A DNA stretch of 63,759 bases, counting the filler, from Nemertoderma westbladi (lineage: Eukaryota; Animalia; Xenacoelomorpha): NCBI GenBank assembly GCA_032718475.1. It is 3 parts of 3 records of this genome, joined end to end, with 100 filler letters (N's around TTAATTAATTAA, not from the genome) between each part and the next. Parts side by side here need not be neighbours in the genome. Positions count along the whole stretch, not along the records: positions 1 to 27,486 come from JAUCBJ010003322.1; 2 more parts are not named here. The stretch is one strand, 5' to 3'. Both the position numbers and the translations under genes were made by a program. The first letter of the stretch is position 1. Each line of letters starts with the position of its first letter. The notes under the pieces are model-generated. The model was not told the DNA's origin and made no database searches. It worked only from the letters and a program-made list of their open reading frames with translations. Of this stretch, positions 2,330 through 57,119 are shown piece by piece.

Positions 2330-5300
2330 CCAGTTGTTTGAAAATTTATAAAGTTTTTTTTCCAACTGGGGAACTTCCCAGAAACAGCCAGTTGAATATT
2401 GTCTCTGCTGGCTTCAGCAACGCGCCCCTCATTTGGTAAAAACAACTCGGGACATCTTTTGATAGCATGTTGCACAAGCATTGGGGCGCCATATCAATGA
2501 TGCCATGTTTAGTACAAATTTCATAGATAGCAACATATCAGTGTAATCTTTTGGACTTTCGCATTGCAAATTTATTTTGGCACAATTGATATGCCATGGC
2601 GGCATTTTGACAGCAGAAGCAGAGTCTCCAACAACGACTAGTCTCAATCCTCCCGATCGAGGATGGGGTGAACCTTCTGGGATGACGACAGGCGATCTCT
2701 CCCGGTCGACGACTTGGGAACCCTCTGGGATGACGACAGGTAATCCCTCCCGATCAAAGACGGGCGAACCTTCCAGGGTGACGATAGGCATTCCCTCCCG
2801 ATTGATGATGGGCAAACCTCCCGGGATGTCGACGGGCGATCCCTCCAGACTGACGACGGGTGAATCCTCCAGGGCGACGATGGGCGATCCCTCCTGATCA
2901 AAGTCAGGCCAACCTTCTGGAGTGAAGACGGGCGAACCCTCTGGGATGATGGCGGACGATCCCTCCCGATTGACGATGGGCGAACCTTCCAGGGTGATGA
3001 TGGGCAAATCTTCCGGGATGACGATGGGTGATCCCTCCCGAACGACGACGCACGAACCTTCTGGGATGATGACAGGCGATCCCTCCCAATTGACGACGGG
3101 CGACCCTTCCAAGGTGATGGCGGTGATCCCCCCCGACTGACGACGGGCGAACCTTCTGGGATGACGATGGGTGAACCCTCCCGAACAATGATGGGCGAAC
3201 CCTCTCGTATGATCACAGGCGATCCCTCCCGATCGACGATGGATGAACCTTCCAGGGTGACGACGGGTGATCCCTCCCGATTGACGATGGGCGAACCTTC
3301 CGGGATGACGACGGGCGATCCCTCCCGAACAACGATGGGTGAACCTTCTGTGATGATGACGGGCAATCCCTTCCGATCAAAGATGGTCGATTCTTCCGAG
3401 ACAGCGGAAAACCAGGCTGATTACAAGCGAGTTAAGCGAGTAAGATTTCAAGCTTCCCCGACGAACCTGGGTTGGGTAGGCCCGGGTATCCATACAGCCG
3501 ATGACCCAACCCGGGGGAATCTACCAGAATTTCATTGTACAGCAACCATGCCCGGTCCAGAGGTAGTAGCATTCCCGAACCTAAATCCTTTAATGCTAGC
3601 CTCGACCCCGGCCCAGACATGTCCGGGTACTAGTAGACCCAGTGACCTGGACCAGGGGGGGCGTGGAGACGGATGGTAACTCCACCTGTAATGTGCTTAC
3701 CGAGACAATGACGGCACCTACTACAGCGGACATTGGGAAACAAGATAACTGTATGGGTATGAGGTTGGTTGTAAACCCAGTGCCAATATATACCAGTGCC
3801 GTACCTAATACTGCCGTTTGCAGTCCTAGCAATGTACTGTACAAATCCATTGGGACACTAGACCTACTGACAACTATTTCACCCCACACTGTCTCATCAG
3901 ACTTTCCGGGCAATGACAGCATTAACACCAGCCAAACCATCACTGAGGACAACCATATAGCACACCCTCCCGCATTCCAGACTAAGACACACACAGGCAG
4001 GCCTCACACAAGGAGCAAAGGCCCCGCCCCCCAACTACCGCAAGCGAGGTCCCTAAAGGCAGCAATCACTAAAAGGAAGTCCATGCTGCATCCAAACAAA
4101 GTTCCTAAATCAAACAAACATAAACCACTAGCAGCATCCCAGTCTGCACATACACCTGTGTCTCAACCATTGCCCATGCCAGCTAAGCATTTACAACAAA
4201 CGATGCCTGAACATAAATCTACATCCCCGCCTCATCCCACACTTCCAGCACAACCAACACCCATACAAGCAACCCAGACAAAACTAACACCTAAGTCAAA
4301 TACTGCTACTATCATAGAGGATCTTATGGGCGACGGATCATGGTGTACTAGGAATGCCAGCACCATAATTACTTCCGCACCAGCAACCCCTTCTGGCACA
4401 GCCACAAACCCTGTTGCAACTACTTACATCTCACCAACACAATGTAACTTAATTCCCAGATACGGACCAGATAAAAATGATAATCAACCAAACCCACCTA
4501 GCTCAATTTCTGATACCCCTAGATTAATTGCTGCATCTGAGACCACATCAGAGCTCAAGAAGGTTACAGACAGCAGACCAATGTTAACAACAACAAAGAG
4601 GGGAAACCGAACACCACCACAGCAATGCCCCAGAAAGAATCACACTAAGAAGAGCAATAATAATACCAAATATAAACCTAAACTTTTGGAGAATAGATTT
4701 GTCTCGGCATCTCCAGACATCCAGACAGAAGACATGCAACCCCACGTGGTTAAGGCGGCCCTCAATGGGCTAATTGAAGAAATTGATTTCCCAGTAGATG
4801 CCCCATTGAAAAACCAAACAAGCATCTTAGACAATAACTCCCCTGATCTAGCAACAGGAGACACCAAGTTACGCACCAATTTAGTGGCTGAATGTATAGA
4901 TGTCTACCCGTGCAGCCCAACCAAGAAGAATACAAATAGGACGGAGGAGGTAAAAAAAGTACCTGTCATCACTGGATATTGATGAACGACGTCCTGGATT
5001 AATTATACCAAGCCCCAAAGACTTGCAGACTCTGTTGCCCACTACATGGGTAACAGATACCATAGTTGACGGATTCCTGGGAATACTGGTGCGACATTAT
5101 AACCATACCGTTGCACTGCCTATCCACCTCACTCTAAGGCTTCAAACACAGAATTATGACATTATTAGTGCGGTTAAATATATAGCTAAGCTATACCTGG
5201 GTACTTCGGACTTGAAAAAACCTGATCTGCTTTTCTTTCCTGAGTGTACAAAATATGGGCCTGGAGAAGAGAATAACCACTTTGTACTCCACGTAGCTAG

Positions 5301-6265
5301 TACAACAGATAATACGGTGAGATGTCTAGACCCTCTTAGTAGAAACATTCCAAACAAAACTACTTTTGAGATTGTAAAAGTACTGTCAAAAATAGACAAC
5401 CTAAAACCCAAAAAGTACCAAACTGGTGTCATAACACCATGGATGACAACAGTAGTCCCCTCAAACCTCCCAAAACAACCCAATTCTTTTGACTGTGGAA
5501 TTTTCGTATGTTTCTATGCTCTCAGCCTGGCCCAGTCATCAGATACGGCATTAGATCTTCTGAGAGACAGTATAAAGAGCAGACAGTGGATACACAACTG
5601 CCTTGATTCCTGTAAGCTTGTAGATCTGGGCCACCACACTTCAAACCATGGAAATTACTCACATGATACTGGTTCCAAACAAAACAAACAACCTCTAAGC
5701 TATGGCATATCTGGCAGGCCTGATTTAGTAGAAGCTGTCAACTCTGAAAATCTGTGTCACCCTATCGTCCCCGCACCCCTCTCTGGAAATAATGAATGGG
5801 CTGCTGAAATAATACCCCTGACCAGAAAGAATGCATTGTCCATAATTGGTGCACAGGTTAAGACAGGAGGTGAAGAGATGAGGCACAATCTTCTAGATGA
5901 TGTCAAGCTTTTTATGTCCCCTGTACAGGCTGCCTCAATGAAATTAAAAAATCGAGTATCCACACACGAATTATACAATGATATTTATGAGTTGCTACGT
6001 TGTATATATGAAAAGAAATTCACTGAGGCATGTAGGAAACGGCTGACAATTGCCGACCCCTCAATCAACGATATCACCATGGATACCCTCCGGAAAGATC
6101 TAATCTCGATGACGGTTACATTCCAAAATAGATTCAGCAAACTTGAAACAGATCATAAGCGCTTGCTAGAAGAAACCAAAAGGCTCAACGACGAGGTTGT
6201 CCATGAGAGGAATACCAGAATCTTATTAGAATTATGGGAATTAATTAAAAACTATAATGGAATGG
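2330..6265 (+). pseudogene. Disrupted large gene: 8-aa repeat array, Pro/Thr-rich linker, Ulp1/SENP (peptidase C48) domain, coiled-coil region; probably transposon-borne
   Basis: ORFs 2577-2897, 2922-3140, 3161-3679, 3642-4982 and 5023-6324 join via a CGA>TGA stop (2895), a 1-nt deletion (~3121), and +1 slips in a G7 run (~3655) and an A7 run (~4953). Ulp1 motifs are present: DLQTLLPTTWVTDTIVD, NNHFVL (His), CLDPL (Asp), QPNSFDCGIFVC (Gln, Cys). Possible decayed downstream exons at 6423-6812 and from 6984. Confidence 0.75.
2667..3390 (+). repeat. Coding minisatellite, 24-bp unit (GEPSRVTT / GDPSRLTM / GEPSGMTT variants), ~30 units
   Basis: Alternating GGCGAACCTTCC.. and GGCGATCCCTCCCGA.. units in the DNA; 8-aa period in the ORF track. 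Confidence 0.9.
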
Positions 6266-7061
6266 GGTATGGGGATTATAGCTGTATAACTTCTAAGTAT
6301 AATTATTTATATCTTATACTATAAAATAAATAATTTCCATTAAAAGTCATGTTGAAAATGTTGTTTTTACCCAAACCAACTTAATTAATTTTAATTTATT
6401 TAATTAACTGCTATTATCTTAGCTTCTCGAAGGCCACACGCAAATTCAACTGTGAAAATTTATAAACTTTTGCCAGACATTTTGTCAATCAATAGTCCCA
6501 GGTATCTCACATGGATCTCACGTGGATTATTGCTTTATAAAGAGTAGACTGTCTACTTTACGTTTAAGGACAACCAATTTGCAATAATAAACCATTCCGA
6601 TCAACTTTCAAGTTCGACGTTCCTATACAATTTTGAATAGTAATGGAATGGGACCAATGTGTCAGCTAGCAGTACGAAAGATATACACACTCAGACGGTC
6701 AGGGATCTACAGGATTAACGGGATGCTGAAACTGAATCTTGATCAAACTTAACTAATCCAAACCAACATTTTTAAATTATCGCTAAGAACATTCTACTCC
6801 ACACACTCTATGGTGAGTCGAGATTAAGTTTCACAAGGGGGTCTACCATGGCATGCCTATAACTAACCTACAGTATAACTAACAATTTAAAAAGAAAGTC
6901 ATGGACTAGGCCCTACATTTTTTAAATAATAAATAGGTTTTTGTATTAAATTTATGTTATATTCATATTATTTTTTCTTTCAGTTGATCTTGAAATTATG
7001 TCCAGCATGAATATCAACACCTATGATACGCAAACACTTTACTCTGGAAGACGATAGATTC

Positions 7062-14279: not shown

Positions 14280-16778
14280 CTACTACTAGGTCGAGCGAAC
14301 TCGGACAGTGGAAATGAGATCCTTCCAGGCTTCCCGATTCTCCATAGTTGTCGCAATTTCGTTTCTCCCAAGTTTAGTACCCCTTTCAAGTTGATCTATA
14401 TATGTTATGGCCGGCTGTTACGACTACTCTTTTAATGAGTTGGTTGCCAGAGAAGTAGATCTGGTATGACCTCGTCTTCACTTTGCCAGCAGTGCCCACT
14501 GAATCTTAATCTGTGTTCACGGAGGGTGGTTGATACAGGTGCTATTGTACCATAAAGCTCGGCGTTTGTCATGTGTTGCCTCCAGCTGATGTTTAGGGCT
14601 GCCCTTAGTAGTCTTGTGTACCATCAATCCGTTGTTCAAGTGATTTAGTCAGCGTCCAGGTCTCACCCCTGTATAAAAATACACTTTCCACTGTGGCTCG
14701 AAAGAACTTAGTCTTCAGGTGCCTGAAGAGATCTGATTTCCAGATGGTATCCATTTTTGATAGAGCTGCCCAAGCCTTTGCTTTCCTAACTTCTATGTCC
14801 TTTTTGCTACTCTCTATCCATGATCCAAGGTACTGGAAGTCGTCGACCTTCCTTAGTTGATTATTATCAATGGTTGTCAAGTTTCCATCAACATTAAAGG
14901 ACATGAATACGGTATTGGTAGCATTTATATGCAATCCAACCTCCTTAGCAGCCCTCTCCACTTTATTTAGTAGGAGCTGTGCATCTGCTAGCGTGTTAGA
15001 GAACAGGGCGATGTCATCCGCAAAGTCGGTGTCTGTGACTGTAGTTGCCGGATATCTACTACTTCTGCGTTCTTGAAGTGTGAATCCCAGATCTTCACCC
15101 TTTGTGGCAGTCCTCATTGCGTAATCCAGCACAGTTACAAATAGTAATGGTGCTAATGTGTCACCTTGCAGTACGCCAGCCAGGATTGAGAAAAACTCAG
15201 TTTCACCATATGGTGAGAGTACCTGTGCTTCTGTGTCACAATATAACAATCCAATGCCAGCAACAATTACTTCTGGTATTCCATAAGCTCTCAGGATTTC
15301 AAGCATTTTACCTCTATGGATGGAGTCGAAGGCCTTCTTGAAGTCCACAAAAGTCATGACTGCAGGGAGATTCTTTGACTTAATTCCTTCAATCAGTCTC
15401 CATAGTGCAAGTATCTGAGGTATCTGATCTACTTGGTCGAAATCCGTTTTGGCTCTTACGCAGTAGTTTCTCTATGTGAGGCCTAATCCTAAATAGAATC
15501 ATTTCATTGTATATTTTGGCAGCTACCACAAGCAGACAGATCCCACGGTAGTTTGTTGGTATGTCGAGGTCTCCTTTCTTGGGGAGAGGCTTTAGTTCAC
15601 CTTTAGTCCAAATTGGTGGTGGCTTTTCCCCTTTTAACATCCGGTTGCAAACATTCAATAATGGTCTGTTTAGCACTCATGTTCCTGTTTTCCATACCTC
15701 CGCTGGGATTTAATCTAATCCACTCACTTTAATATTGGACATGCTTTTAATGCTTCTTTGGAGTTCGGCAGGCAAAGCGGTTTTGAACTTCTACTGTGTA
15801 AGCATCATTTACTGCATTGTCAGTCCTGAGTTTCTCCCAGTCATAGTTGATTGCTTGCTTGTCATGGGTTTGCTGGCTCTCAAACTGAGTCTGATCTCTG
15901 CAGTCACAATTCTGTGTTCCGAACCAATTAGGTCGAACGAGCTGTATGCCTCGCAGTTGATCATGCTGTTTCACCACTTTTTGTTTATAAGGATGTAATC
16001 CAGTTGTGCTTTGGTTCCATTAAGGTACTGACAGGTCCATAGCTTCCCCTTACTCTTTTCGAATGTGTTGTTTGTTGGTATCAATTCACATTCTTCCATT
16101 AGGTGTAAAAGTAAGTACCCATTTCTGTTAGAACTGGTGTTATAGGTGTAACCCTTGATGTCTTCTGGGCCAATTTGCGCATTCAGGTCACCAGCAATGA
16201 CTTTAACATTGTGTTTCGGAATGTCCTTTATAAGTACAGTCAGTTCTTCATAAAACTTGACTGCTTGTTCTGGCTCTGAAGCATTGGTTGGACTGTAGCA
16301 ACATATAACTGTTGCCTTGGGATTCCCATCAAATGTTGCGATCATAACCCTGAAATTTATAGATTCGATGTTGTTTAGTGTCTTAAGTGCAAATGGGCTT
16401 ATCAGAATTCCTACTCCACCAATTGATGCATTGGCCGAGTTTCTTACTGCTGAGCTTGTTACTAACTTCCATCCACCTCCAATGTCACTGTACTTCATGG
16501 CAGTGTCTTCATGACAAATCCGATGTTCTTGGATGTAGATGATGTTGTGTCGATGTTATATATTGCCAGAGCGACCATGTCACCCTGTTTGGTACAGTAT
16601 GTGCTTTCAGCGTGCATGCGTTCATTGTAGCAATCTTGAGTGTCTTTTTACATTTCAACAGGTTGGTTCTTCTTTCTTCTCTGTGTTCAGTTCCAGTAGC
16701 CAATTTATCGACCCCAGCCTGGTGTACCACTGAGGGACGCGGTCCTTGTTGACTCGGGCGACGACCGAGCCGGTATTT
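14280..16778 (-). mobile_element. RTE-clade LINE (family A), 5'-truncated and internally deleted, inserted in the CR1-group RT
   Basis: EN: IATMNA, CYSPTN, AGDLNAQIG, QLDYILIN. RT: NYRGICL, SQNGFRP, FVDFKKAFDSI, GVLQGDTLAP, DFADDIAL. (TAG)n tail. 14-bp TSD GTATATCTTGTGTA at 14266-14279 and 16779-16792. Confidence 0.95.
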
Positions 16779-17481
16779 GTATATCTTGTGTAGGGTGCTC
16801 TATTGGTAATATATATTTTGGTTGTCTAGCATACGCAGTCGATGTGTTATTACTATGTCCATCAGTTTTTGGTTTACAATATATGATCGATATCTGTGTA
16901 GATTTTTGTACTGAATTTAAGTTAAAAAACTAAGTGTTAATTGCGACCCGAAGTTGTGTAAATCTAAGTGTATTCCAATTAATTTTGTATGGAAACCTCC
17001 TAGAGCTGAAATTGTTGTAAACGGCATTTCACTACCGTAGGTTCAGGAGGCTATTCATTTAGGTATTTTGCTCGATTACAACTTTAATTTATTACGAGGT
17101 GCATTTATTGGTAAATTATCAAATTTACGTCAGGAATATAATTTCTCATCGCCACATATTTTATCATATCTACAACGTGTATGTATATTGTACACATTTT
17201 TATGGTTGTCCGGTTTGGGATATATATTCTGAAGGTTGTAAGCGAGTTTATAATGCATGGAACAACAACATTAAAATTGTATGGGCATTACCATATAATG
17301 CCCATCGGCTCATTGTTGAAGGACAGGTAAACTTTGAGCATCCTAAATTTATGATTACGAAACAACTAGTTAATTTTTCGAAAACGGTGTTAGCGTCTAA
17401 CAAGCTATGTGTCAGATTTTTGTCCAGATTAGTGTGGAATGATTGCCGGAGTCGTAGTGATTTATATATTAGGCGTATATG

Positions 17482-17598
17482 TATGGGGCGCCGTGGGCTT
17501 CAAAAATATGAAAATGTCGGCGACTGGTTCAGATTCTCGGCGACGGTCTGAACCAGTCACCGACATTTTCATATTTTTGAAGCCCACGGCGCCCCATA
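17482..17598. mobile_element. 117-bp hairpin MITE with 6-bp TSD
   Basis: ~52-bp arms (TATGGGGCGCCGTGGGCTTCAAAAATATGAAAATGTCGGCGACTGGTTCAGA and its complement, 1 mismatch) around a 13-nt loop. TATATG is duplicated at 17476-17481 and 17599-17604. Confidence 0.9.
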
Positions 17599-18135
17599 TA
17601 TATGCAATGAGTGTTTCCTCTCCGATATTATTTTTATTGTGCAACACCCTTACGAGCGACGCAGTTTGCATTTGTGCAGGGAATTATGCCGAGTTAGAAA
17701 CGGCGAGTTGGCAATAGCAGGGTTTTCAAATAATGAAATTGGGATGCTTTTGGAGCATGTCTCCTCAGACTGATTCTACCTACCTTACATTACTTATATA
17801 TATATTTATATATTTTTCTTTTTTTTGTTGGTAATTTAATTATTGTGCTCCTGTACTACCATACGATTAGTATATTCCCATATGTTATGTACGAAAGAAA
17901 TTAATAATAATAATAATAAGGGAAGCCTGTTGGATTGCAGACGTATATTTTATAGCAGGGCATCGCAAATTTTTGTCATTTGATTCAAAGTATACTTATC
18001 AGAAATCATCTTCAAAATGTCTTTTCTAAAGAATTTGGCGATATTGTATAGTTCGTAGATAACAGTTTGTTGCTGGTCTGATTTTAAGGTTATAAGCCTG
18101 GATTTAGGTTGGATTAGATTGGTAGGGAGAACAGG

Positions 18136-19359
18136 TGTAAAAGCTTTTGCGTAATTAGCCGGTTATTATCCCCGTAAAGTACTCTGTGGTTGGTTTACCA
18201 GGCATAAAAAGGCCGTGTCCTTGCTGTACTGGTGTTTTGGAGGACATAAAAGCCATTTCTTCTGTATTTGTACTTTAGAGGACATAATCTGCAATTTCGT
18301 GACGTAAAAGGCTCGATACTCTTGAAAACAGTGTCGCTACCATGACGACGGCTAACGGCTGATATTGCCACGTTGCAACTTTCTGTATCTGCCAATAGGA
18401 TTTGAGTTAGTTTTGATTTCGACCTATCACAAATCTACTGAACTGAATTTCCTATCTTTATGCTCATTCTCTGTGGTGGGTGGAAGCCTTTGTAAATAAG
18501 GTTATTCTTATCAGTGTTCAGTGTTATGTTTTTGCCCAGAGCCTAAGAACCGGCTTTTGGCACCTCCGTGTTTCAGTCTTTAGTCTTACATTAGTAGGCT
18601 CAATTATAGAACGTATATCTGTTATCTTAACTTAACTTAACCACTCACGAGTTACACAAGTTAACTCATTCACTTAATAATCATTTATACATTAATATTA
18701 CTGCTTTTACTGTCGGTCATTCATTATATTGGTTGATGAAATATTATATCGGAATACTGATCAATAGTCAGACACCCCACCTTCTTGATATACTAAAGGT
18801 TAGAGAGACCGGTTACAGATAAACGATTGCGACCTGTGTTGAGTGGTTTGAAGTGAATCTAATGCTATTTCATATGCCCAACATAAATTGTCTGTTGCTC
18901 TCTTTATACGTGACCAAATTTAGTGAAGGTCGGCAGATTAGTGTGCAGTATTGTGCAGCATTGTGTATGAGTGTAACTGATAACAAAACATCTCCTAAAG
19001 AATGTGCCATATACGTGAATCTATAGCCTTTTCGTTGTGACTAGTTTAAGTCATAACTCTGTTTATATAGATAGAGCGCCACGTCCTAAAGGAACTGTTA
19101 ATATTTCCCGAAAGTGAATAATATTTGTCAGAAATTATATATCACGATCAGTCGAATAATACAGTAGGCTTACACCATCAATCATTAAGCCCCGAACTCA
19201 GTCTCCCGGGTATATCCAACGGGTGAATGATTGCGCATAGACTGGCTTCGGCTAATGTAGTGTATCAAATACTCGTCATAGGCTAAAGACTATCTATCAT
19301 CCAAAAGACATTCTAATTTTGGCAGGTTAAACTGTCAAAGGTCTTTAAAAGCGCAAACA
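18136..19359 (+). repeat. 5' LTR (1224 bp)
   Basis: Starts TGTAAAAGCTTTTG and ends AAAGCGCAAACA. Aligns by eye with 30682-31846 from the CCAATAG motif (~18392) to the end. Confidence 0.9.
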
Positions 19360-19370
19360 ATAACAGATAT
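19360..19370 (+). promoter_or_regulatory. Candidate self-priming primer-binding site (ATAACAGATAT)
   Basis: Directly abuts the LTR end and lacks the TGG start of a tRNA PBS. Exact reverse complement of LTR positions 18615-18625 (ATATCTGTTAT). Confidence 0.65.
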
Positions 19371-19645
19371 TGCTTCTGGATTGCGGTGTAAGCAATCTAG
19401 TCGAAAGTACCGGTTGACCGGTAACCAGTAGGCCTGACTGCCTGATCATCCGGACCGGTACCTACAACAGTACAGGTACAGCAGTATTATTCGATTGTGA
19501 TCTATTGTATACTGTAGGCTGCCAGGGGAATAGGGATTGATCACCCCTCATTCTTTTGTAAAGTTTACTTATTTCTGCAAGTTTTATTTGTTTGTAGGCC
19601 AGTATTGAACAGAAGGCGTGTAAGCCTGATCAGATTGTGCAGACA

Positions 19646-20215
19646 ATTTGTAGGTTGAACTGTTGTCTGATTGCTGTTAAGTCTGAACGGATTGCAGTGT
19701 GTGTAGATCACCTGTCCGATAAAGAACGGTTAGGAAGTAGGGGCAGCGAATGCTGTAAGGTAAACCCCCAACTAAAGAATAAGTCGTACTACTGGGTTAG
19801 AACGCATACTACCTAATTATTTCGGAGTCTGCATGTCCTGTAGTTTATTTAGGCTTGAGAGTAGTCTGCCATCGTTTAGTCTGTACTTTGTTTGTGTAAG
19901 TCTGTACGGGTAGCGTATAATATTTATTTAGATAATTTGTAGGCTGGATAGTTGTCTGGCTGTTATTAGGTCTGAACGGATTGCAGCTTGTGTAGATCAC
20001 TTGTCCGATAAAGAACGGTTAGGAAGTAGGGGCAGCGAATGCTGTAAGGTAAACCCCCAACTAAAGAATAAGTCGTACTACTGGGTTAGAACGCATACTA
20101 CCTAATTATTTCGGAGTCTGCATATACCGTAGTTTGTTTAGGCTTGATAGTAGTCTGTCAGTGTTCGGTCTGCATTTTGTTTGAGTAGTTTGTACGCGTA
20201 GCGTAATATTTATTA
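19646..20215 (+). repeat. 289-bp direct tandem duplication in the BEL leader
   Basis: GAACGGATTGCAG at 19685 and 19974. The central ~120 bp are identical between copies; the flanks have diverged. Confidence 0.9.
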
Positions 20216-21534
20216 TTCAGAGTTTATGCGATTATTCGCAACATTCATTCCCCAAGTTTGTTCCTACAGTAATTGTGTTTGTTATACATACCGCTATAGT
20301 TAAATTAACCCCGGTACTACACGGGCTGCTTGGCGTAGGTAAAGACTGGTGATTTTGTGCACCGGTCACTCCAGCAGATGCCGTGGTTCTTTTAGCTGTT
20401 CAAATATATTTAACTACTGATTATATGTTGTACAAGTACTCGTACCTAATTTAGGGTTTAGTGTACAGTGCTTTCCGAAAGTAATTAGTGTAGGCATTAT
20501 ATTTGTGTTGTAAAGTGGTTGATAGGCACATTCGATTAGCTCTATTAACTTCTAGGTAGGAACACTCCGTGATACATAACGTAGAACCTATAGCGATACG
20601 GCTATAGGTCGTCAGGCGGTGGTATTTTCCTATCTGGACAACGCAGTGTATTTACTACTACGTATTATTTTCAAATACCGCAGTACCCTGTCCGTTGTAA
20701 TAACCAGAATTCTAACCCTTTGTTAGGCTGGTTTGTAGACTTCTTGTAAAATTACCCTAAAAATTTCGTATTTGTGTTTTTTGTAAATTTTTGTGTTTAT
20801 TTAGAGATTGTAATCTCACCCGAATTGTACGTAATTTGTAGTATTAAGTAACTTAGGTAAATTAGCATTATTTGTTTTAGTGTCCTATAAGTAACACTTC
20901 ACTGAAAGCACACCGCTTTGTGTAGTGATTACTCCCCAGAAATAATAACATTTATTTCAAACATTGACAAAAACCCATTAAAACGGGTATATATATATTA
21001 TAAATCAAATCTAACGATTTATAAATAGTAGGCCTACCATACAACCATTAGGTCTCAATATCAGTTGGATTACTGCTCAAAAAACGGTAATAAAGTAAGT
21101 AAAGTAACCAAGTAACCCTAAAATTCAGAAATTCAATTATTTAAAATAATTGATATACCGGTATTTACGATAGGCCTATTATCTTTATTTCTATAAATTT
21201 AGGCTGAAATTATACCGGTACTTTATAATTAATTCTAGTCCAGAATTATACTTATATATACTACAAACTGTAAGCTGTATACCGGTATTCCCGATAGGCC
21301 TATTATATATTTATATATATTTGTGCTAAAATTATACCGGTATTCTGTGATAAACCTAGTCTGTAATAATAGTTATATATACTATAAGCATACCGGTATT
21401 CTAATATATTATATATATCACGCTACACTGAGTAGCAGTACCGGTAATTAATTACTAGGCTAGCAGTTAATACTGAATTACTAGACTTGCTTAGACTGTA
21501 ATATAGCAGTAGGCATTCAACTGTACTCACAAAC

Positions 21535-24500
21535 ATGTCTGATACTACTCTGAACCTGTCAGACAGTCTATTAGATGTAACTATCTGCGACTCAGATAGA
21601 GATATAGAACCGTCTAGTCGTAAGTTCAGTTCACCTCCCACTGTGAGGAAGGTCATCCCTCCAGTAGTAATAAAAGAACCTAGGCTGGTCCAACATCGTA
21701 GGTCTATCATAGGCACTCGAGCTCAGGTCAAGCGGGACCAAGAAGCAGCGGAACAGCAACAACCCGCGAGCCAAGAACTTACTTCTCAACGGCCCAACAG
21801 CTCCAGTAGTGAGGATACTGTAGAACTGACACCCGAGCGCGGAGCAAGGATGACGGATGCGGTTTATTCGGATCCCCTTCTCATCCTTCCTGCAGCCGTA
21901 CTCACTAGGTTATTGATCGCTGTGGAAGAACACCAGATCGATTGGGCGAGAAGCCAGCGTTCAACTAGAGATAGTTATGCTGGATACACAAGGGAAGAAC
22001 TGAAGTCCATGGTCGAGTCGCAATGGAACTTCCCCGGACCCGGACTCCCGTTTGATTTATCAGAAGCTGCCTGGGAAGGCTGCCAAGGAAACCATCGATC
22101 CAGCTGTATGGAAGAGGTCCGCAGCCGGATACGCACAGGGATTCTTTAGCTCTATGGAGCGAGTAAAAGGACAACTGTTTCAACAACCACAAGGACCTCA
22201 AGAGCAGGGACAACTGCTTTATCAAGTTAGAGAAAGAATTCTACGAATCAGGCTAATATTATCGGCCTTTGAGGAGGCTTCTAAACGAAGGCAAGACACG
22301 TCATTGCAAGTTGCCGTAAAGACTTGGTTTCAAAGGGTGAGTCTCCAGGTTCAAGGAACAGCTCAGTGGAAAGCTCAGCTGGAAGAGCGCTCAACCCATG
22401 GAGAATCAACAGACGCTACTTTTTCCCAAGTGGAAAGTGAAGCGACGGCAGAGAAACCGCATAAGAGGGATGCCATTGACATCTATCTGTCAGACTATCA
22501 ACGTTTTTTAGGTGATGACGAGTTGAGGAGAAGGTTAGAGGGACTTAGCCCTAATAGTGAAGGAACCAAGCTAGTGTTGGATGCCATCGATGTGGAAATG
22601 AGGGCTGCGAATCAGGCTAAATTTGATGAACAACTCCGCCTGACACGAGTCCAAGAACAACAAGTAAAGAAAAAACGCATAGAAGACAGAAAGAAAGCAG
22701 CAGTGGTAGCTGCAGAAGCAGAAAGAAAAGCGGCAGCGGCAGAGGCAGCGGCAGAGGCAAAGGCAGCCGAAGCTGAAAGAAAAGCGGCAGCGGCAGCGGA
22801 AAGAAAAGCGGCTGAGGCAGTGGCAGAAGCAGAACGGAGAGCGGCTGAAGAAACCATCCAATTAGAATTGGAAAACATTCAGGAGAATCAAGACTGCATA
22901 AATAAACAGTTAACAGCTAGTAATATGCAGATGATGAATCGATCTACTCCCAAAAGACAGGGATATACATCATCTGAAGAAGGCGATACCACCGATACTG
23001 AAGGCAAAGGAAATAGATCTCGTCTAAGCAGACGTAAAAGAACATTCCACCATCAGAAATTGCCTGATTTGCCTCCAGCTGTTAGAAGGCAACTAAATAA
23101 CACCAACTTAGGTAGTACAGAGCCCACAGACCAAATAATTAAAATAGAAAGACTCCCTACGATAGTAGATGAGCCTGAAATAATTAGGCCTGTTCTTGAA
23201 ATCACCCCTTCGGTGATAGACACACCTGTGCTCCCTGAGATTACCTCTAAACTCCCTCTGCATAGCACTAAGCTACCTGTGCCCCGTAGAACTGCCCAGG
23301 AGACAGTTCATGTCCTGGACCCCGAGCGAAATATTCATGATTTGTCGCCCGTTGTCCCTTGTCCGCCCGCTACAACGTTGGCGACTCCCGCTTCGGTGGT
23401 CGAATGGGTGGACGAGAGACGGCGGGGGATGGATCTCCTGCTCGGGCAGATGCAGGAGACTGTTCAGCAATTTAAGGGCACAGTAAGGGAAAGTAGGCTA
23501 GAGTTGCAAGAAGTGCAGCAAAGTATCGCGCTAGAACGCGATAAATTAGTAAATACCCAAAAGGGTATACCACCACCCTCTGTAACAATGTGTCAACCTG
23601 TTAGGTCTGAAGTATCGCATGCGCAAGGTGTGGAGCCTACACGCATCTATACTGCTAGCGAAGTAGAAACTCCTATAGTGAACCCTATTAAGGGTAATTA
23701 TAGACCTGTTGATAATGATATTCCATATAGAACTGATCATAATCCGAGAAATTTATATACCGATAACTCGATATTAAATAACACGATGGCCCAAGAAAGT
23801 TTTACGCGTCAAATGGCTAGAACCGAAGCCCGGCAAGCGGTAAAGGTGGGAGAGATCGTCAAGTTCAATGGAGATGAGATGAAATGGTTACCTTTTAATG
23901 AATATTACAAAGATAACATACAGAACTCTGTACTATCTAATGGAGAAAAACTTAGATACCTCATCGAGTGCTTGGAAGGATCTCCCAAGTTAATGGCGTT
24001 AAAGTTTATTGGACATCCAGACGGATTAACCCTATTAGTACCGGGCTATAAAATGTTGTACAAATACCGGGAGGGGGTCATATTGACCCCCCCCCCTCTA
24101 AAATCTACAAATATTTACGAAAACGTCTGATTTTTTGTTTGTACGTAGGTATCACTTGTCTGGATCCGACCGAAAAATAAAATTTTCGAAAAAATGTACT
24201 GGGGTGGTTATATTGCAGCACCAAAATTACAAGTAGTGCACAATTTTCACAAAATTTGAAAGTTACATTTTCGGCTAATTATTTTTCAATACAGGTTTTT
24301 TGGGGTGCAAAATACATTGGAAAATATTTAAAATTGATATGATTACTATAAATGGCTGTTTAGTCCTCTCTGCGTAGGAAAAAAATGAAAAAAACAAGTA
24401 ACCAGCACTTTTCAGTTAGAACACAAAATTTTTAATTCACTTATACGATGCTATAAATTCACATTTTCAGGTTTTCGAGGGCGCTGATTCTAATGGAATA

Positions 24501-27486
24501 CATTTCTAATATGCCAGATCATTGCTACTTGTATTTTTCGGCGTAATTTAGCAAATTTTGGTGCTAGCACCAAATTTCGTACCCATCACCAAAAAGTACA
24601 AGTTTGCGATGTCCAGTGCTGTTTTTATTGATTCCATCGGATTCAGGACCCTCATAAACCCGTATAACGCAAGAAACAAGGTGATACTATCTACTTATCA
24701 ATTTGCATATTTTCCAAAATTTGGTGCTGGCACAACAATTTTCACCCACCGGCGAAAAATACAAGTTTGAGAACTCCTATGAAATTGTTACTGATTCCAT
24801 TGAATTCAGAACCATCACAGACCCGTATAACGCAAGAAACAAGGTGACACAATCAATTGACATATTTGATGGTTTTCAAAATTTGGTGCTAGCACCACAT
24901 TTTGCACCCACATCCGAGAAATACAAGTTTGAGATGTCTAGTTCGATAATTATATTTTCCATTGAATTCACAACAGCCATAAACCTCTAAAACGCAAGAA
25001 ATAAATTGTCACAAGCAATTTTATATATTGAATGGATTTTCAAAATTTCGTGCTAGCACCAAAATTAGCACACAGCACCGAAAAATACAAGTTTGATACG
25101 CTTGGTTCAACTCGTATATATTTCATCGAATCCAGAACCTCAAAAAACCCCAATTGCGTAAAAAACAAGTTTCAAACAATCAATTTACAAAATTGACTTA
25201 TTTCAAAATTTGGTGCTGGCACCAAAATTTGGCACCCATCGAAAAAAACAAGTTTGAAATTTCTAAATCAATTTATATGAATTCCATCCAATTTCTAACA
25301 CCAAAAAACCGGTGTAAATCAAAAACCGAGATGTTACAATTCATATTTAATGAAATGTAATTTTCAAAAAACGTCTCAAAAAAAGTGCCAAAAGTAGGGT
25401 TAAAAAATGGTGCTATAACTCGAAAAGTTCCCAATATTTTTGAAAACGGTTTTCACTACCATGACGACAATAGATTTTTAGGAAAAGTCATAAAATTTCA
25501 GATTCCCAACTGCGTTTGTTTCATAATTATTATAAAAAAACCACGGGGGGGGTCATATTGACCCCTCCCCGGGTTTAATAGGGTTAAGACAAGTTTGGGA
25601 TACACTAAACATCAAGTATGGTAATAGGAATAACATCGCTGGGTATTTGTATGCAAAGTTAGTAGCGCCCCGAAAGTTTATTAGCAGCGGAATTATCGAG
25701 TTTTCCGATGAGATTCAGGAGATCTGTAGACAATTAGATTGGCTAGGTAAGTCTCAGGAGTATCAGAATGCTATGGTTATTAGAGCAGTGGCTTCTACTT
25801 TACCGAAGGGTGGAGTAGGTACACGCTGGGATAAGAAAGTGTTATATATGATGGAACAACAACGACGAGACCCTACCATGGCTGATCTCATGTCATTCCT
25901 AGATGGAGAAGTGAAATTACAGCTCCTGAAACTGTCCAGAGAGAAGACACCGGAAAACAAGGTAAGCGAAAAACCCGTCTCTAGGAGAAAGGTAACACCA
26001 GTGTGTTATACAGACGACGGCGAAAGCCAGACTTCTCAAGGAGAAGATAGCGGGAAAGACACTGAGAGATCTTATTATGTCAATAAAATGCCTAAAGATC
26101 AGGTAAGTAAATTCAAGTCTCGAGCAAATGACAGGAGAGAACAGGTAAGAAAAACTCCTCCCACGTCTCCCAAGAGAATTCCGGTGAGAAAGCCCGAAGA
26201 AAAGGCAAGTGTACACAATGTGACTCAAAATAAGGTAAGTAACATCAAACCAAAATGTGCGCTGTGTGACGGGACCCACCGTTTGAATATGTGTGATGAA
26301 TTCCTGAAGAAGTCATTAACGGAGAGACGCGAAGTCATGTGGGATAAGCGGTTATGTTATAATTGCCTCAGACAAGGACACCAACGGCGTACCTGTTTCT
26401 CTGATATAAGGTGTGCAAAGTGTGGTGCGAAACATCATATCTTGTTGCATGCTGAATTCGAGCGAAATAGTCCGAATCAGGTAAGTGATTCCGAGCTACA
26501 TGTCCAATTCAGTGATGTGAACGACACTGATCAATCTGAGATGGAAGGATTCTATACGGACGAGTTCTCCGACGAAAACGAATCCTGTTACATGATAAAT
26601 ACCGCAGTGTATCGAGCACTCACCTATGAAAAGGATACAGACAACGACTTCACTCTAACTACTTCTGAGCGACAACCATCTTGGAAAGAGCCATCTTCCA
26701 ATATAGGGATCCGAGAGTTTCCTGTGGTGCAAGTAAGGGTTCACGGACCTAAGAGGAGTTATGTAGTGAACGCCCTCCTTGACTCCGGTAATACAGGAAC
26801 ATTCATCGACAAAGAGCTAGCCGAAGATATATTTGCTGGACAACCCAAGTTCCAAACTAAGCTCAACATGTCCGGCATTATGCAAGTTTGGAAATCTACA
26901 ATAACAGCGGATTATTATGTAGGAGCGTTGTCCACCCCCCAGGACGAACTAGGAGAACATAGCATAAGGTCAGTGAAAATGGTGGCTATAAAGAACTTCG
27001 CTACTACTCAAGCAGACCTTTATAATTGGGACGAGGATGAGAGCATCCAACATCTTAACATACCTCGATTCCAGACTGATTATCCTGGAGTGCAAATACT
27101 CATCGGCCAAAACGCGCATGAGGCGCTGGAGACATTAGAGAAACGGCCTGCTCAACCGCAGCCACTACAGACCTATGCGGTAAGAACTAGAGTAGGTTGG
27201 TACTTTACTGGCCCTTCCCGTAGAACACTCAGAGAAAGACTACCGCAAGAGCGCGTCTACCAGGTGAGTGAATGGGAATATGATACTAGTGAGGGAGACG
27301 ATTTAACTGAGGGAACCCCATACTCCTCAGATAACGACGACGTGCACCAGCTTTTTGATGAGGAGAATACCATCGATCTCCTTAAGGAAAGCGAGGCTTG
27401 GCAAAACCAAGTTAACTTATGTCAACTTCTCTATCCATCTGAACGAGAAGCTTATAACGACGAGTTAAATGACGTCATTGAGCGTT
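21535..27486 (+). pseudogene. gag-pol: BEL gag-protease polyprotein: one +1 frameshift, a DNA-transposon insertion, truncated by the gap
   Basis: ORFs 21535-22149 and 22052-24130 join at ..EAAW|KAAKETID (extra G ~22073). Removing 24030-25587 restores PDGLRQVWDTLNIKYGN. Knuckles CALCDGTHRLNMC, CYNCLRQGHQRRTC, CAKCGAKHHILLH; aspartic protease LLDSGN. Confidence 0.9.
24030..25583. mobile_element. Non-autonomous piggyBac-type DNA transposon (1554 bp), copy 1
   Basis: TTAA TSDs at 24026-24029 and 25584-25587; termini CCCTATTA..TAATAGGG; subterminal GGGGTCATATTGACCCC palindromes; internal ~125-bp subrepeats; no transposase ORF. Confidence 0.92.
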
Positions 27487-27586
27487 NNNNNNNNNNNNNN
27501 NNNNNNNNNNNNNNNNNNNNNNNNNNNNNNTTAATTAATTAANNNNNNNNNNNNNNNNNNNNNNNNNNNNNNNNNNNNNNNNNNNN
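27487..27586. other. Assembly spacer (N44-TTAATTAATTAA-N44)
   Basis: N runs around a six-frame-stop linker; same as 52430-52529. Confidence 0.99.
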
Positions 27587-28586
27587 TACCCATCTCAAAT
27601 ATTAATTAATTAATATTTGCAAAATCTAATAAATCAAAATCTGTAAAATTCAGATCCTTCAATAATTCTAGTCAATTAAGATATCGTAGCATTTACCGAT
27701 ATTCTTAAAAAAGACAATTGTCATAGAATTAAGGATCTTGTGTCCCTAGACATGTTCTAGAATCAAAATATGTCCATTTAATTATCAAATAATAAAATTT
27801 CAGGGAATAAATTTAAATTCATGCCTTTTAATGAATTTAATAAATTGCCATTTTTACGCAATTTATAACGTTCCCAAATTTCCATTAATTAATAGATCAA
27901 GGGAGCGGAGATTTATCTTATTATGCGTATGAGTGTGTGAAAGTCTCCCAAACATAGTCAATAGCCGATAAAATTCATAAAGTCATGTATAAAACAGAAC
28001 ATTGACTATTAAAGAATACTATTAAATAACATCCCAGATCTGTATGCATTGGAATTACCCTAATTCTACCGCTAGCTTTGCATAATGTCACCATAGCAAC
28101 AACCACGCTAGAATTAGAATGGAGTTAAAAGAACAATAGAAAGCTTGTCCCATTGAATAGCATAGGGAATAAATAGCGCACTACTAGTATCCAAGGATAC
28201 ATAATAATACAGTGACATTCTGGAAGGCATTGACTAACGGACAAATGGCCCGAATGTGCGTAGTTGTGACCAGTTGTGTGGTATTTGTGAGTTTATAGGT
28301 GAATGTTACTGCTAAAGTGTGTTTACAGTAGCTAGTCGCAATCGTAAAAGTAACCTAACTCTCCAAGGAATACCTGAAGTACATCTAAGCCTTTGGGACG
28401 GACAGTTGAGTGACTTGTGCCGGTTATCGTTGTCGTTGTACGGTCGTTGGCGAAAGTATAGCGACAGCGGTACATCGGCGCTGAGAATCTCATACTGTCC
28501 GGGGGCAAGGGAGAAATAGGCAGCGACGCCCGCTCGCCTAACAATATATAAACTCATTATAATATTGGTGAACTCGTATAGCAGAT

Positions 28587-30603
28587 ATGACTGAATTAAT
28601 AGAAGATGATCTTGGTATCAGGGAGAGATATACTCTACCTTTACAAGCGTTTGTCGATAGCTTGATACGCGGCGACGCTGATCCAACTACTACGGAGGAC
28701 GATGGTCGTTATATCGAACCGCCAATGTCCCAGGAGCAACTTACGCGTGAATTGGACTATAGAAAATTCACTGCTCGCTATACGCATCGTAATGGTATGT
28801 ATATGGACTTCTTAACTACCGGCCATCCTATTGATTTACACGACACCGACGATGTCGATACCGAAAGGGAAATGGTTTTATTTAAATATCATACCCAGCG
28901 GAGTCGAAACGACAAATCGAGAATAGAACACGAGAACTCTATTCGAAATAAACTCGAAAGAGAAGACGTTGAAGAACCTGATAAACGTAGCGGCTTCAAC
29001 GAATACGACTTTCGGAATATGGAGAACATTCCATATCCCTTCGTTGATATATTTTGATGGACCATTAACTGCGCCTGGTGCAGTATATAGCTTTATGAGT
29101 GTTCCACTTCGCCCTTCCTTAGCTATATACACGATCTTTGAAAACGCAGCACTTGCCGGTTGGCTAGCCGATGTGTGCAGTCGTACCATACGCGCTCACC
29201 CGTTAATACTTGAAACTAAACTCGCCAAGTTAGACGAACACAATAAGTTCATACGTTTCGAATGTTTCCGGCGCTTTCTGACTCCGTTCCGTAACGTCGA
29301 TAGTCAGTTCAAGGATCGCGCGCTGACCAAGCTCAGTCTTAGAGACTCAGCTGCGGAGAAACTGAGTAGCGCTGGATTTGCCGTCTTTCAAGACGTTTGT
29401 ATACAGAACCTACATTCATCCGTTATACAAAGACCCCGAATATCTACAGGTTATTCTGTCGTGGAAATACAGACAGTGGGTCCACTTACTGAGACAGACG
29501 CACCCACTTCGTCTATACAACTGGAGGATGAACCAGTGTGCTTGGAATCAGAAGCGATTCAGCCTACAACTTCCCGGAGAAGTGACAATGATTATGTCAT
29601 AGAGTGGTATCAAGGTCCACAGCGTCTCACAGCGTACGATTATCGACACGCCAACTACGTTTCTCGAAAACGTTGTCGATTATGCGCATCGAGAGACCAC
29701 TTCACTCCTCTAGACTCGAGCGTACCTTGTTCCTATTTCCTCGAACAACCGATGATGGAAATATATTGTGCTTATTGCCGGCTTAATAACTCTCATATAT
29801 TTGCCGTCTGCCCACAATTTATGACTCAATGTCACTACTGTCAATTTAAAGGACATGAAAGTTACAATTGTCCCTTTAATCGCGATTTAGAGAGCGTAGA
29901 CGAGATGATCACCCTGCGATACATCCGAGCTTGGGAAGCGAACGCCGATTTACATTGCGAATCCCGACATCGCTATTACCCTGGACGAGCTTACGAGGGA
30001 GTTTACGCGTTCCATCCTTATCTATTCGCGTCGATCGAACAGAAAACACGCGTACCAAGTTACGAGTTAATGAAGCGTGTTGGTGAGTGTATTTCCACCA
30101 AGTTTGTCAGGAAATACCTTAGAAACGTTAACCCTAATGATATAACCACATATCACCTGATCAATTTTATCCGTCAGGACCCTGAGTATGGCGACATCTT
30201 TGTGAACTCGCATCCTGAACTACAGGAAATATCTCGGCGACCATATGAATATCGAACCCGAGAACGCGAGCTGGAGAGAACCATTAAACCGAGAAAGTTC
30301 CTCACTACTCACGGTCCACCCACCGCTAGTGTCCAGACGACCCGTCAAGGACCCGTAGGAGCTGCTGTCCTGAGACGCGCTCTAAAGGCCGTTAGACCTC
30401 ACTCCACTGAGGTTGATATTAATCAACCAGGTACTTCGACCGGCGGGTATACCGATCGTAACCCTGCACCTTCTGATGCAATTATATTGCACCCTTCGCC
30501 TAGGAGCTACAGCCCTCCTCGTAAAGTGGCTCGCCCCAAAGAGAAAATGACTCTTGCTAGCTTTAAAAAACTGCGTAAACGCCGTCCGCGCAAGAAAGAC
30601 TAA
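28587..30603 (+). CDS. Accessory ORF of the BEL element (~670 aa if one +1 slip is corrected): triple zinc knuckle, basic C-terminal tail; not env-like
   Basis: ORFs 28587-29057 and 28969-30603 fuse at GAT ATA TTT(T) GAT GGA. Knuckles CRLCASRDH..C, CAYCRLNNSHIFAVC, CHYCQFKGHESYNC; ends KKLRKRRPRKKD. No signal peptide or TM segment visible. The 3' LTR starts ~80 bp after the stop. Confidence 0.75.
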
Positions 30604-30681
30604 CTGTTTAGAGTATTTATGTATATTAGAAATTGTGATTTTGTATATTTTATAGACTTAAATCCCATTTTCTGGGAGCGG

Positions 30682-31846
30682 TGTAAAAGCTTTTGTGGGA
30701 TAACTGATTCGTTTGCCTTGCTAACCAGTTCCCCCCCAGTCGCTAGAATACTCTAAAAAGGGATCTCTAACTCGAATAGCACAAGCTACCGGCTGATTGG
30801 CTGATTCGCTGTGCGAAGGGATCTGGGCTACGTTTGATTGTCCAACTAGCTTGGGAAAGTATCTCCCAATAGAATTTGAGTTGATTTTGATTTCGACCTA
30901 TCACAGATCTACTGAACTGAATTTTCCTATCTTTATGCTCTTTCTCTGTGTTGGGTGGAAGCCTTTGTAAATAAGGTTATTCTTATCAGTTTTCAGTGTT
31001 GTTGGTCTTTCTTTCCTAAGCCAGGAGAGAACGGCTTGTAAATATTTTGTGCTTTTCTGTTTTAGTCTAACACTAGTAGGCTTAATTATAAAGGGCATAT
31101 ATCCGTTATCATAACACTGCATTTATCACAACATAACATACCATACCTAATCAAACAACCTGTGCATACTTTATATTGTTATACTGCTATTTACTGTCAG
31201 TTCTTCATAATATGGTTGATGAATTATTATATTTGGAATAACGATAAATAACCCCGAAACCCAATATTCTTGATATACCGAAGGTAAGAGAGAAAGGTTA
31301 CATATAACGATTGTGACTTATGTTAAAGTGGTTTGAAGTGAATCTAATGTTATTTGATAGACCCTACATGAGTCAGTCCGTGTTCCTTTTATATATAACT
31401 AAAATCAGTGAAGATCGGCAGATCAGTGTGCAGTATTGTGCAGCATTGTGTATGAGTGAACCTGATAACGAAGCATTTCCTAAAGAATGCGCCATATATG
31501 TGAATTATAACTAAGCCATATCGTTGTGAGTAGTTTAAGTCATAACTCTGTTTGTATAAATAGAGCGCCACGTCCTAAAGGAACTGTTAATATTCCCCGA
31601 AGGTGAATAATATTGTCAGAGATTATATAATACTGTCAGTCGAATAATACATTAGGCTTACATAGCAATAAGATTAAGCCGTCGAACCCAATCTCCCGGG
31701 TATATCCAGCGGGTGAATGATCGCGCACAGATTGGTTTCGACTAGTGTAGTGAATTAAATACTTGTCATAGACTAAAAGTGATTTATTATCTAGAAGACA
31801 TCATAATTTGGCGGGTTAAACTGCCAAAGGTCTGAAAGCGCAAACA
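30682..31846 (+). repeat. 3' LTR (1165 bp) preceded by a polypurine-tract-like GGGAGCGG
   Basis: Same termini as the 5' LTR. The first ~185 bp do not align with it; the rest is clearly homologous but diverged. Confidence 0.9.
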
Positions 31847-31849
31847 GTT

Positions 31850-32098
31850 TTGAAAGGTCCATAGCTTCCCTTTACTCTTTTCGAATGTGTTGTTTGTTGG
31901 TATCAATTCACATTCTTCCATTAGGTCTAAAAGTAAGTACCCATTTCTTTTAGAACTGGTGTTATAGGTGTAACCATTGATGTCTTCTGGGCCAATTTGG
32001 GCATTCAGGTCACCAGCAATGACTTTAACATTGTGTTTCGGAATTTCCTTTATAAGTCCAGTCAGTTCTTCATAAAACTTGACTGCTTGTTCTGGCTC
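31850..32098 (-). mobile_element. RTE family A endonuclease fragment flanking the 3' LTR
   Basis: Near-identical to 45714-45960. Confidence 0.9.
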
Positions 32099-56015: not shown

Positions 56016-57119
56016 TCACGAACTCGCACACCCACAATGAAACGAGGCGGACTCCTCCCGAACTACCGTAAAGTTACACCCGACGCACTCCACGTGGTAC
56101 CACTTGTCGCAGTCGTCGCACTGAACCCACTCCACCGTGTCCCCGGTCGGCTGGAAGCAGTCGTACGACGCGCAACTCTCGTATTCCGCCCCCAGCAGCA
56201 ACTCCACCCCCTTCTTCCGACCTTCCGACTTCCCACCAACTGGACCCCCTGGTTTCCGGGCTTCCGGTTTCCGTTCTACCTTCCGATCCTCCGGACTCGA
56301 GGCCTTCCCCGGGGGTTTCCTCCCGCGCTCCGACGGTTTCCCTTCCGACTTGGCCTTCCGGCCGGAGGTCGGAACCGGCGGCGGCTCGACGTAGCCGGAG
56401 GACTCGGATCGCCGCCGCGTCTTGGAGGCCATCGCGTTCTTTGCGGAGGCGGCGAGGGCGGCCTTCCGGGCGGGGACCACGGCCGGAATCAGCTTCCCGG
56501 AGGAACCGGAATCGCTATCCCCGGAGGAATCATCCCGTTTCTTCCCGCCTTTAGGGCTGAATTTATTCGATGTTTTAATCTTCTTGTTGGAGTTGACCAC
56601 GGGTTGCTGTTTCCGTCGCTTTCGATCCGGGCTGAACGACGACCTTTTGGAGTCGACGCTTTTCGAGCGAAACTCGTCGGCCTGAGTTTTTGATTGTCCG
56701 TTGTATGAGCGCGACGGGTGAACGCAAACGAACTCGAATCGGAACTCCGACTCAGATTGGTGCGCGATCGTACCCTCCTTTATGTTGAACCCGTTGACGT
56801 GGCCGAACGTGATAGAGTCGCCGACATGGAGTTCTTCTTGTCCGGATATTTTGCGGTCGTTCAGGAATGTTCCGTTGAGACTCGTGTCCAGCAGGAGGAA
56901 GCGACACTCGTTACTGTCGTGGATGCACTCGATCTCGGCGTGGTGCCGCGATATCAGCCGTTTGCTCAGCGACGAGTTTAGGTAGAAGTCCACCTCGTCC
57001 AGCTGTCGGCCAATCAGAGTTCGAGGTGACGTCAACCTGAAGCAGTCCTTGACCCCCTTACAGGTCGCTTGGTTTCCGGTCCGCCGGAGCTGGTAGATAG
57101 GTCCATCTCGGGTATCCAT
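56016..57119 (-). CDS. TCF19: TCF19-like protein (N-terminal FHA, basic linker, C-terminal PHD-type finger), 367 aa, single coding exon
   Basis: FHA motifs IGR, ISRHHAEI, DTSLNGTFLN, GDSITFGH, then the TCF19-typical Q..SEFRFEF. PHD: CASYDC..WVQCDDCDKWYHVECVG..FHCGC. First ATG at 57119 (in-frame TGA upstream); acceptor-like AAACAG at ~57150 suggests a 5'-UTR intron. Confidence 0.85.
   Translation of the reverse strand: MDTRDGPIYQLRRTGNQATCKGVKDCFRLTSPRTLIGRQLDEVDFYLNSSLSKRLISRHHAEIECIHDSNECRFLLLDTSLNGTFLNDRKISGQEELHVGDSITFGHVNGFNIKEGTIAHQSESEFRFEFVCVHPSRSYNGQSKTQADEFRSKSVDSKRSSFSPDRKRRKQQPVVNSNKKIKTSNKFSPKGGKKRDDSSGDSDSGSSGKLIPAVVPARKAALAASAKNAMASKTRRRSESSGYVEPPPVPTSGRKAKSEGKPSERGRKPPGKASSPEDRKVERKPEARKPGGPVGGKSEGRKKGVELLLGAEYESCASYDCFQPTGDTVEWVQCDDCDKWYHVECVGCNFTVVREESASFHCGCASS

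Follow-up and report, generated by a model that had tools for sequence, protein, structure and literature searches.

The BEL/Pao retrotransposons (Belpaoviridae) are described as using a tRNA primer, tRNA-Arg or tRNA-Gly, that binds at an 18-nt site, and their replication is described as poorly understood (ICTV profile, PMC8742986). Self-priming has been described for the Tf1/sushi group and predicted for Tcn1 (available text of PMC6317226 and PMC4600332), and the same part of PMC6317226 predicts it for the Copia elements TAR, Houba and Osr-1, on the basis of an LTR complement of at least 10 nt to a site starting 0–5 nt after the LTR. For this reason, self-priming outside Gypsy, which an initial annotation of the DNA studied here had put forward as new, is no novelty in itself. 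In Tf1, a central primer-site duplex is accompanied by two further duplexes, in which sequence adjacent to the site pairs with LTR sequence downstream of the primer (10.1101/2022.12.06.519325, as far as its available text goes). Bivalve TRIMs have hairpins instead of a tRNA site (PMC6934838, accessible part).

The element described here lies in a window of 63,759 nt, by which we mean the whole stretch of DNA analysed, from the Nemertoderma westbladi assembly GCA_032718475.1. Like the Tf1/sushi chromoviruses of the Ty3/gypsy superfamily (Tf1 and Tf2 of S. pombe, Tj1, Tosmo1-3), it has no tRNA site, its primer site adjoins the terminal CA and its LTR contains a complement of that site, and it is predicted to share with them two flanking duplexes (available text of 10.1101/2022.12.06.519325 and PMC4600332). 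Unlike them, it has a BEL/Pao gag and protease, an animal host, a 1.2-kb LTR, a 735-nt loop and a competing local hairpin, and its self-primer at the RNA 5′ end is putative. Its proteins are not those of Ty3/gypsy chromoviruses; since 36 of its 36 relatives are BEL-type, the element is not a member of the Tf1/sushi group, though it may work in a Tf1-like manner. Cer7 of C. elegans, likewise of BEL/Pao, reportedly contains a tRNA gene of its own; the present element would resemble it in supplying its own primer, and differs from it in that no tRNA gene was found.

The element also has the complement of at least 10 nt at 0–5 nt from the LTR that marks the Ty1/copia elements TAR, Houba and Osr-1 and the Tcn1 chromoviruses (plants), which belong to another superfamily and another kingdom (PMC6317226, available text). 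The fungal GalEa elements of Copia (Conserved Hairpin Site) likewise have no tRNA site and carry a hairpin of variable loop just after the 5′ LTR, but they are without the LTR complement that is exact in our element (PMC5445492, available text). No paper on BEL/Pao self-priming was found in a literature search whose scope ended short of subscription journals, Repbase reports and supplements; a term search of the accessible text of two BEL/Pao papers (PMC554778, PMC3118150) gave no mention of primers or tRNA, and the accessible parts of PMC3601003, PMC13524379 and PMC3286476 held nothing further on the subject. What we propose is a known mechanism in a superfamily where its description appears to be absent.

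Anatomy and class of the element

The element, whose own features are on the plus strand, begins with a 5′ LTR of 1224 nt (18136–19359, TG...CA), upstream of which lies low-depth DNA. Behind the putative primer site, a long 5′ leader of about 2.2 kb (19371–21534), with a direct repeat of 289-nt period (19641–19898 and 19930–20187), is followed by gag in pieces. The 5′ part of gag (21535–24025), in two overlapping frames in the present copy, has a weak DUF1759 match and tblastn support from BEL proteins; a TTAA-flanked insertion (24026–25588), presumably piggyBac-like, breaks up the gene; and the 3′ part (25590–27486), with Cys-His clusters and the protease motif LLDSG, stops at an assembly gap of N's (27487–27586). 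The word TTAATTAATTAA in the middle of this gap is probably an assembly marker. A second TTAA-flanked insertion, at 33193–34772, is 94% alike to the first and lies in opposite orientation; both are non-coding and contain internal 163-nt repeats.

Beyond the gap, an extra ORF region (28572–30603) in two overlapping frames (28572–29057 and 28927–30603) contains three zinc-knuckle-like motifs. It gave no Pfam match and no relative among 1.84 billion representatives, and in the Atlas only matches below threshold were obtained, with knuckle proteins of the CCHC, DUF8363 and AIR2-like kinds; it is a candidate RNA-binding accessory protein of this BEL family. A short, purine-rich stretch resembling a polypurine tract (30668–30681) directly precedes the 3′ LTR, of a sister subfamily (30682–31846, 1165 nt), and a LINE-like repeat fragment follows.

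LTR size, gag, protease, polypurine tract and the position of the extra 3′ ORF all recall the Belpaoviridae. Both LTRs, with their TG...CA ends, fit the 0.2–1.2 kb of BEL/Pao; the Gag is BEL-type (DUF1759, Cys-His clusters) and is accompanied by a protease; and the purine-rich stretch ends at 30681, immediately before the 3′ LTR. The DUF1759 matches are below the curated cut-off (E 0.001–0.01). The relatives are BEL-type polyproteins in 36 of 36 cases, with PF03564 in 34 and either PF03564 or PF05380 in all 36, and the closest protein identities amount to 21–43%, over parts of the proteins. The assignment to BEL/Pao is provisional, because it is based on proteins and Pol was not found in the window: tblastn with the 36 BEL polyproteins found no RT, RNase H or integrase in the element. 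The difference from the Belpaoviridae lies in the 18-nt site for a host tRNA 3′ end, which is part of the profile (PMC8742986) and is not found in the present family.

The two LTRs share a start of 14 letters (TGTAAAAGCTTTTG, at 18136 and 30682) and an end of 12 (AAAGCGCAAACA, at 19359 and 31846). Contigs (not raw reads) of four of seven public runs were also compared with the region. The 5′ LTR's end at 19359, originally fixed by the second LTR, is independently backed by a drop in summed contig depth at 19359/19360 and by one contig of run X3 that enters unrelated DNA behind 19360, and is upheld. Things are different for the second LTR as partner of the first in one element. Only from 18385 onward do the two resemble each other, at 80%, their first 180–250 nt being unalike; they have no common target-site duplication (ACAGG at the 5′ LTR, GTTTT at the 3′ LTR); and an N gap intervenes. 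They therefore probably stem from separate insertions, of sister subfamilies, that were brought together across the gap. The LINE-like repeat behind the 3′ LTR is absent upstream of 18136.

In the unalike stretch (18136–18384 versus 30682–30858), the 14 shared nt are followed by 160–235 unalike nt and similarity resumes at GTATCT; this looks like swapped U3 modules. A purine-rich flank before 18136 was considered as part of a tandem element and discarded, its depth being at flank level. In one X5 contig of depth 411, LTR position 18965 is connected through nine letters with the LTR start 18136, perhaps because one LTR sits inside another, and an inverted repeat at 17477–17603 has 57-nt arms, 96% complementary, around a 13-nt loop. 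Elsewhere in the window, an uninterrupted ORF on the minus strand (56016–57137) encodes an FHA + PHD protein like TCF19, with its best named match in Saccoglossus (53% over one third of its length). Three overlapping ORFs on the plus strand (3032–6324), the last with an Ulp1-type peptidase domain, are probably a DNA transposon. LINE-like fragments are present in several copies (14605–16780, 31851–32098, 45536–46575), one of them with an RT domain.

The post-LTR site and its match in the LTR

The 11 nt directly after the 5′ LTR (19360–19370, ATAACAGATAT) are the exact reverse complement of 18615–18625 (ATATCTGTTAT), with 11 of 11 letters at offset 0, as the initial annotation had noted. It was also correct that pairing ends at the LTR edge, where C18626 stands opposite A19359, and that the post-LTR sequence is without TGG: none lies within 0–5 nt of the LTR end, and this holds family-wide. 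The LTR complement thus exceeds the length of at least 10 nt, and the site starts within the 0–5 nt, on which self-priming has been predicted in Copia. The homologous motif of the 3′ LTR (31099–31109, ATATCCGTTAT) shows the single change that had been reported, C for T at 31104, which mismatches the primer site; the calculated duplex energy, −10.5 kcal/mol for motif and site, is −5.8 kcal/mol for the homologue, with a C–A mismatch in mid-helix.

When the LTR was shuffled 20,000 times with its dinucleotides preserved, an exact match of at least 11 nt had a chance of 0.0016, and of 0.0038 when an offset of 0–3 nt was allowed; this chance was 0.0005 over 2,100 leader positions and 0.0004 over 60,904 window positions, and the energy of the 11-bp duplex was equalled in 1 of 500 shuffles of the 11-mer. 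The earlier estimate by simple counting was a fair one, the computed chance being about 0.0004–0.004 per locus. A looser extension of the pairing (18601–18611 with 19374–19383), reported at the same time, is indeed predicted, yet it does not exceed chance expectation: 63 of 208 leader 25-mers find LTR partners that are equally good or better, as do 55 of 300 shuffles, so it was rejected as evidence for self-priming.

The family is very abundant in the host, as judged by contig depth. X3 record 9, which is the deepest of the junction contigs listed, covers 19330–19376 at depth 3831 without any differing letter, the flank having about 50, and ATAACAGATAT is unchanged in it; because of this, the primer site is family-wide and not the property of a decayed copy. 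It also appears better kept than its neighbours, since in another X3 contig (record 10) the match stops at 19371 and the following letters differ; diverging variants depart after 19371. Among the 16 of 153 pieces listed, from which variants at contig ends are excluded, no variant of at least 2% was found on 19330–19415, and none with a compensatory G at 19365; given the low power of short contigs, which hide variants, the absent G is a weak negative for motif–site covariation, which to that extent speaks against the prediction of the initial annotation. The LTR–leader junction is also covered, with 16 differences, by one contig of X4 (organism B), and X4 and X5 contigs gave no match on a short junction stretch, which is no proof of absence. 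DNA-pattern searches returned nothing in viral contigs, seven matches in bacterial genomes that were taken as chance, and, from metagenomes, a single contig that is GC-rich and bacterial-looking; when viral contigs were scanned at the protein level, no BEL locus was revealed. The metagenome contig (L001) starts with 24 letters (3–26) that also stand, unchanged, in the conserved LTR block around 31558–31581, either by chance or through a chimeric end.

At the LTR motif, similarity among LTR variants breaks directly after its end, past 18626: three of 13 contig joints depart from the window sequence at 18626, and summed depth is about 20-fold lower in the bin 18644–18697 than in 18590–18643 (X1, X3). 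Between the two LTRs, 11 of 12 letters are identical at 18615–18626 and 44 of 74 at 18627–18700; the former agreement is in itself unsurprising, because the LTRs are 80% identical overall.

An alternative is that the primer comes from the host, with a tRNA half or some other small RNA starting synthesis at 19360 and the LTR match being accidental. Half-tRNA priming is known from Copia lineages, and GalEa manages without either a tRNA site or a self-complement (PMC6317226 and PMC5445492, available text). In our data, one X1 contig carries the identical primer site and leader behind other upstream sequence (loose end before 19356), perhaps another LTR type with a common primer site, and in one variant a TGG occurs at a distance of 12 nt from the LTR end, both of which would suit an outside primer; this TGG, however, is not conserved among variants. 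The stretch 18619–18624 can also be counted on the same side, as it presumably resembles an anticodon loop with GUU. Nevertheless, a host primer requires a coincidence of 1 in 260 to 1 in 2,600 that starts exactly at the LTR edge, and searches for the RNA itself gave nothing: Rfam returned no tRNA (RF00005) up to E 10 at motif or primer site, only weak unrelated matches, and ARAGORN found no tRNA gene, on which grounds an embedded tRNA gene was rejected. We consider host priming unlikely. The primer-site feature is real and probably functional, and self-priming is the best reading of the 11-nt match; that the element's own RNA, in one way or another, primes its reverse transcription we regard as likely.

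Predicted duplexes and transcription signals

In the lowest-energy fold of an RNA from 18615 to 19500, an LTR arm b (19168–19183) pairs with a leader arm b′ (19379–19393) over 9 + 5 bp, and an LTR arm c (19231–19236) with an arm c′ at the LTR end (19351–19356), leaving the primer site mostly unpaired between the two duplexes. The energy of b/b′, −19.3 kcal/mol, is reached by 1 of 1030 leader 15-mers, by 10 of 500 shuffles and by a single one of 79 leader blocks, and five control leader blocks come within 0.7 kcal/mol of it. Its homologue in the 3′ LTR (31655–31670), with other letters, is that LTR's best predicted partner for 19379–19393 (−16.2 kcal/mol), so that b/b′ would have outlasted the divergence of the second LTR, although the significance is modest. 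The duplex c/c′ alone was rejected as evidence, because 86 of 500 shuffles are equally stable. When motif and primer site are held open, b/b′ has P 0.86 and c/c′ P 1.0 in five of five transcript spans, and adding the 11-bp duplex gives energies 3–7 kcal/mol below the unconstrained fold, pseudoknot penalty excluded. The resulting layout of three duplexes around the primer site is predicted to be like that of Tf1. The duplex b/b′ would also be compatible with a retrovirus-like U5–leader stem and an outside primer, in keeping with the host-RNA alternative discussed above.

A local hairpin of 9 bp (19376–19400) is mutually exclusive with b/b′. In RNAs from 18610 or 18615 to 19400–19450, the helix of motif and site forms beside this hairpin with a mean probability of 0.92–0.95, and it is absent from nested folds for an RNA start at 18513 or 18520 or an end at 19500 or 19600; such zero probabilities are partly methodological, because nested folding cannot form the motif–site pseudoknot. 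Loose ends of contigs, of which 24 of 440 were listed and which are not linked to single copies, were inspected by eye. Those at 19171, 19174 and 19175 have other letters and still pair with b′ over 12–13 nt; the one before 19388 pairs at 10 of 11 positions with 31088–31097, just ahead of the 3′ LTR motif; and the hairpin arm 19392–19396 is kept while the loop varies.

Transcription start positions were judged from sequence signals alone (TATA, initiator and other consensus words), and several besides 18615 are allowed. A start at about 18520 would fit a TATA-like word at 18491 followed 29 nt later by an initiator-like TCAGT, and a start further upstream is allowed if the GT at 18501 and the AG at 18583/18594, present in both LTRs, serve as donor and acceptors of an intron (18501–18609, with a further AG at 18609). 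The interior of this candidate intron is variable (24 of 43 letters identical between the LTRs at 18526–18568, against 133 of 141 in the block 18385–18525), and none of the 13 contig joints is intron-less. Starts at about 18520 or upstream would be compatible with self-priming by a longer primer. On the other hand, a start at about 18635 is allowed by TATAAA at 31087 in the 3′ LTR, only 12 nt ahead of the motif there, to which 18605 in the 5′ LTR is a poor match, and one at about 19095 by a TATA-like word at 19064/31555 in a highly conserved block; with either of these, the 5′ part of the RNA could not be the primer.

A start from the TATA-like words at 31087 or 19064/31555 would place the motif in U3. 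It is then conceivable that the pairing is selected for something other than priming, the 3′ LTR copy of the motif bridging the RNA ends or acting as a switch, and that priming occurs in another way, e.g. through the hairpin 19376–19400. The TATA-like words at 18605/31087 and 19064/31555 and the two mutually exclusive structures predicted at 19379–19397 would be in agreement with this, and a conserved hairpin stands in for the tRNA site in fungal GalEa (PMC5445492, available text). However, the helix ends precisely where a primer has to end, a helix on the 11 nt that adjoin the LTR would leave no place there for other primers, and no alternative primer was found, so that we judge a non-priming role of the pairing to be improbable.

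The break in similarity at 18626 also fits a cleavage site for polyadenylation, and TATAAA in the 3′ LTR lies 17 nt before the motif end. The element's own RNA might thus prime otherwise than by a cut 5′ end, either by its 3′ end, with poly(A) at about 18626 and the tail removed, or through a short LTR transcript acting in trans and possibly spliced; the TATA-like word at 18491, TCAGT and the possible intron at 18501 would suggest transcription from upstream of the motif. The signals at the site itself argue otherwise, as AATAAA is found in neither LTR and no listed poly(A) hexamer occurs at 18501–18791 in the 5′ LTR. Nor does splicing help: no splice joint in either LTR improves on the unspliced 11-mer complement, for which reason a splice-built primer was rejected, and intron-less joints number 0 of 13. 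A primer of either kind appears doubtful to us.

Proposed self-priming in a BEL/Pao lineage

Our preferred reading, which we hold to be rather probable, is that the minus-strand primer is the 5′ part of the element's own transcript, cut at 18625/18626. Transcription would start at or upstream of 18615. The LTR arms 19168–19183 and 19231–19236 would pair with leader and LTR end and keep the primer site open, and 18615–18625 would anneal to 19360–19370, forming a pseudoknot. Cleavage between 18625 and 18626, for which, on the model of Tf1, the element's RNase H is probably responsible, would free a 3′ end that reverse transcriptase could extend into the terminal ACA at 19359, and strand transfer would make use of the R that lies downstream of the cut. 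If transcription starts upstream, the primer may exceed 11 nt. Start, cut, extension and strand transfer are modelled here on Tf1. The weak, AU-rich helix of motif and site and the loop of 735 nt between primer and site count against the proposal.

Self-priming in a BEL lineage, as suggested in the initial annotation, has thus gained the family-wide site, the break at 18626 and the predicted Tf1-like duplexes, and has lost the extended pairing. In a fuller form, towards which we incline only slightly, an animal BEL/Pao lineage has independently dropped tRNA priming and evolved a Tf1-like leader, with a three-duplex pseudoknot, a switchable hairpin and a primer possibly placed by an intron. Start sites and primer RNA should be observable, because the family is so abundant in its host.

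If the proposal is true, self-priming has arisen in all three LTR superfamilies, and Gypsy, Copia and BEL/Pao have converged on one RNA architecture. The question would then be whether BEL RNase H also cuts RNA–RNA duplexes. It would also explain why tRNA-based annotation misses the primer sites of such families, and a self-primed lineage would alter the description of BEL/Pao replication as tRNA-primed.
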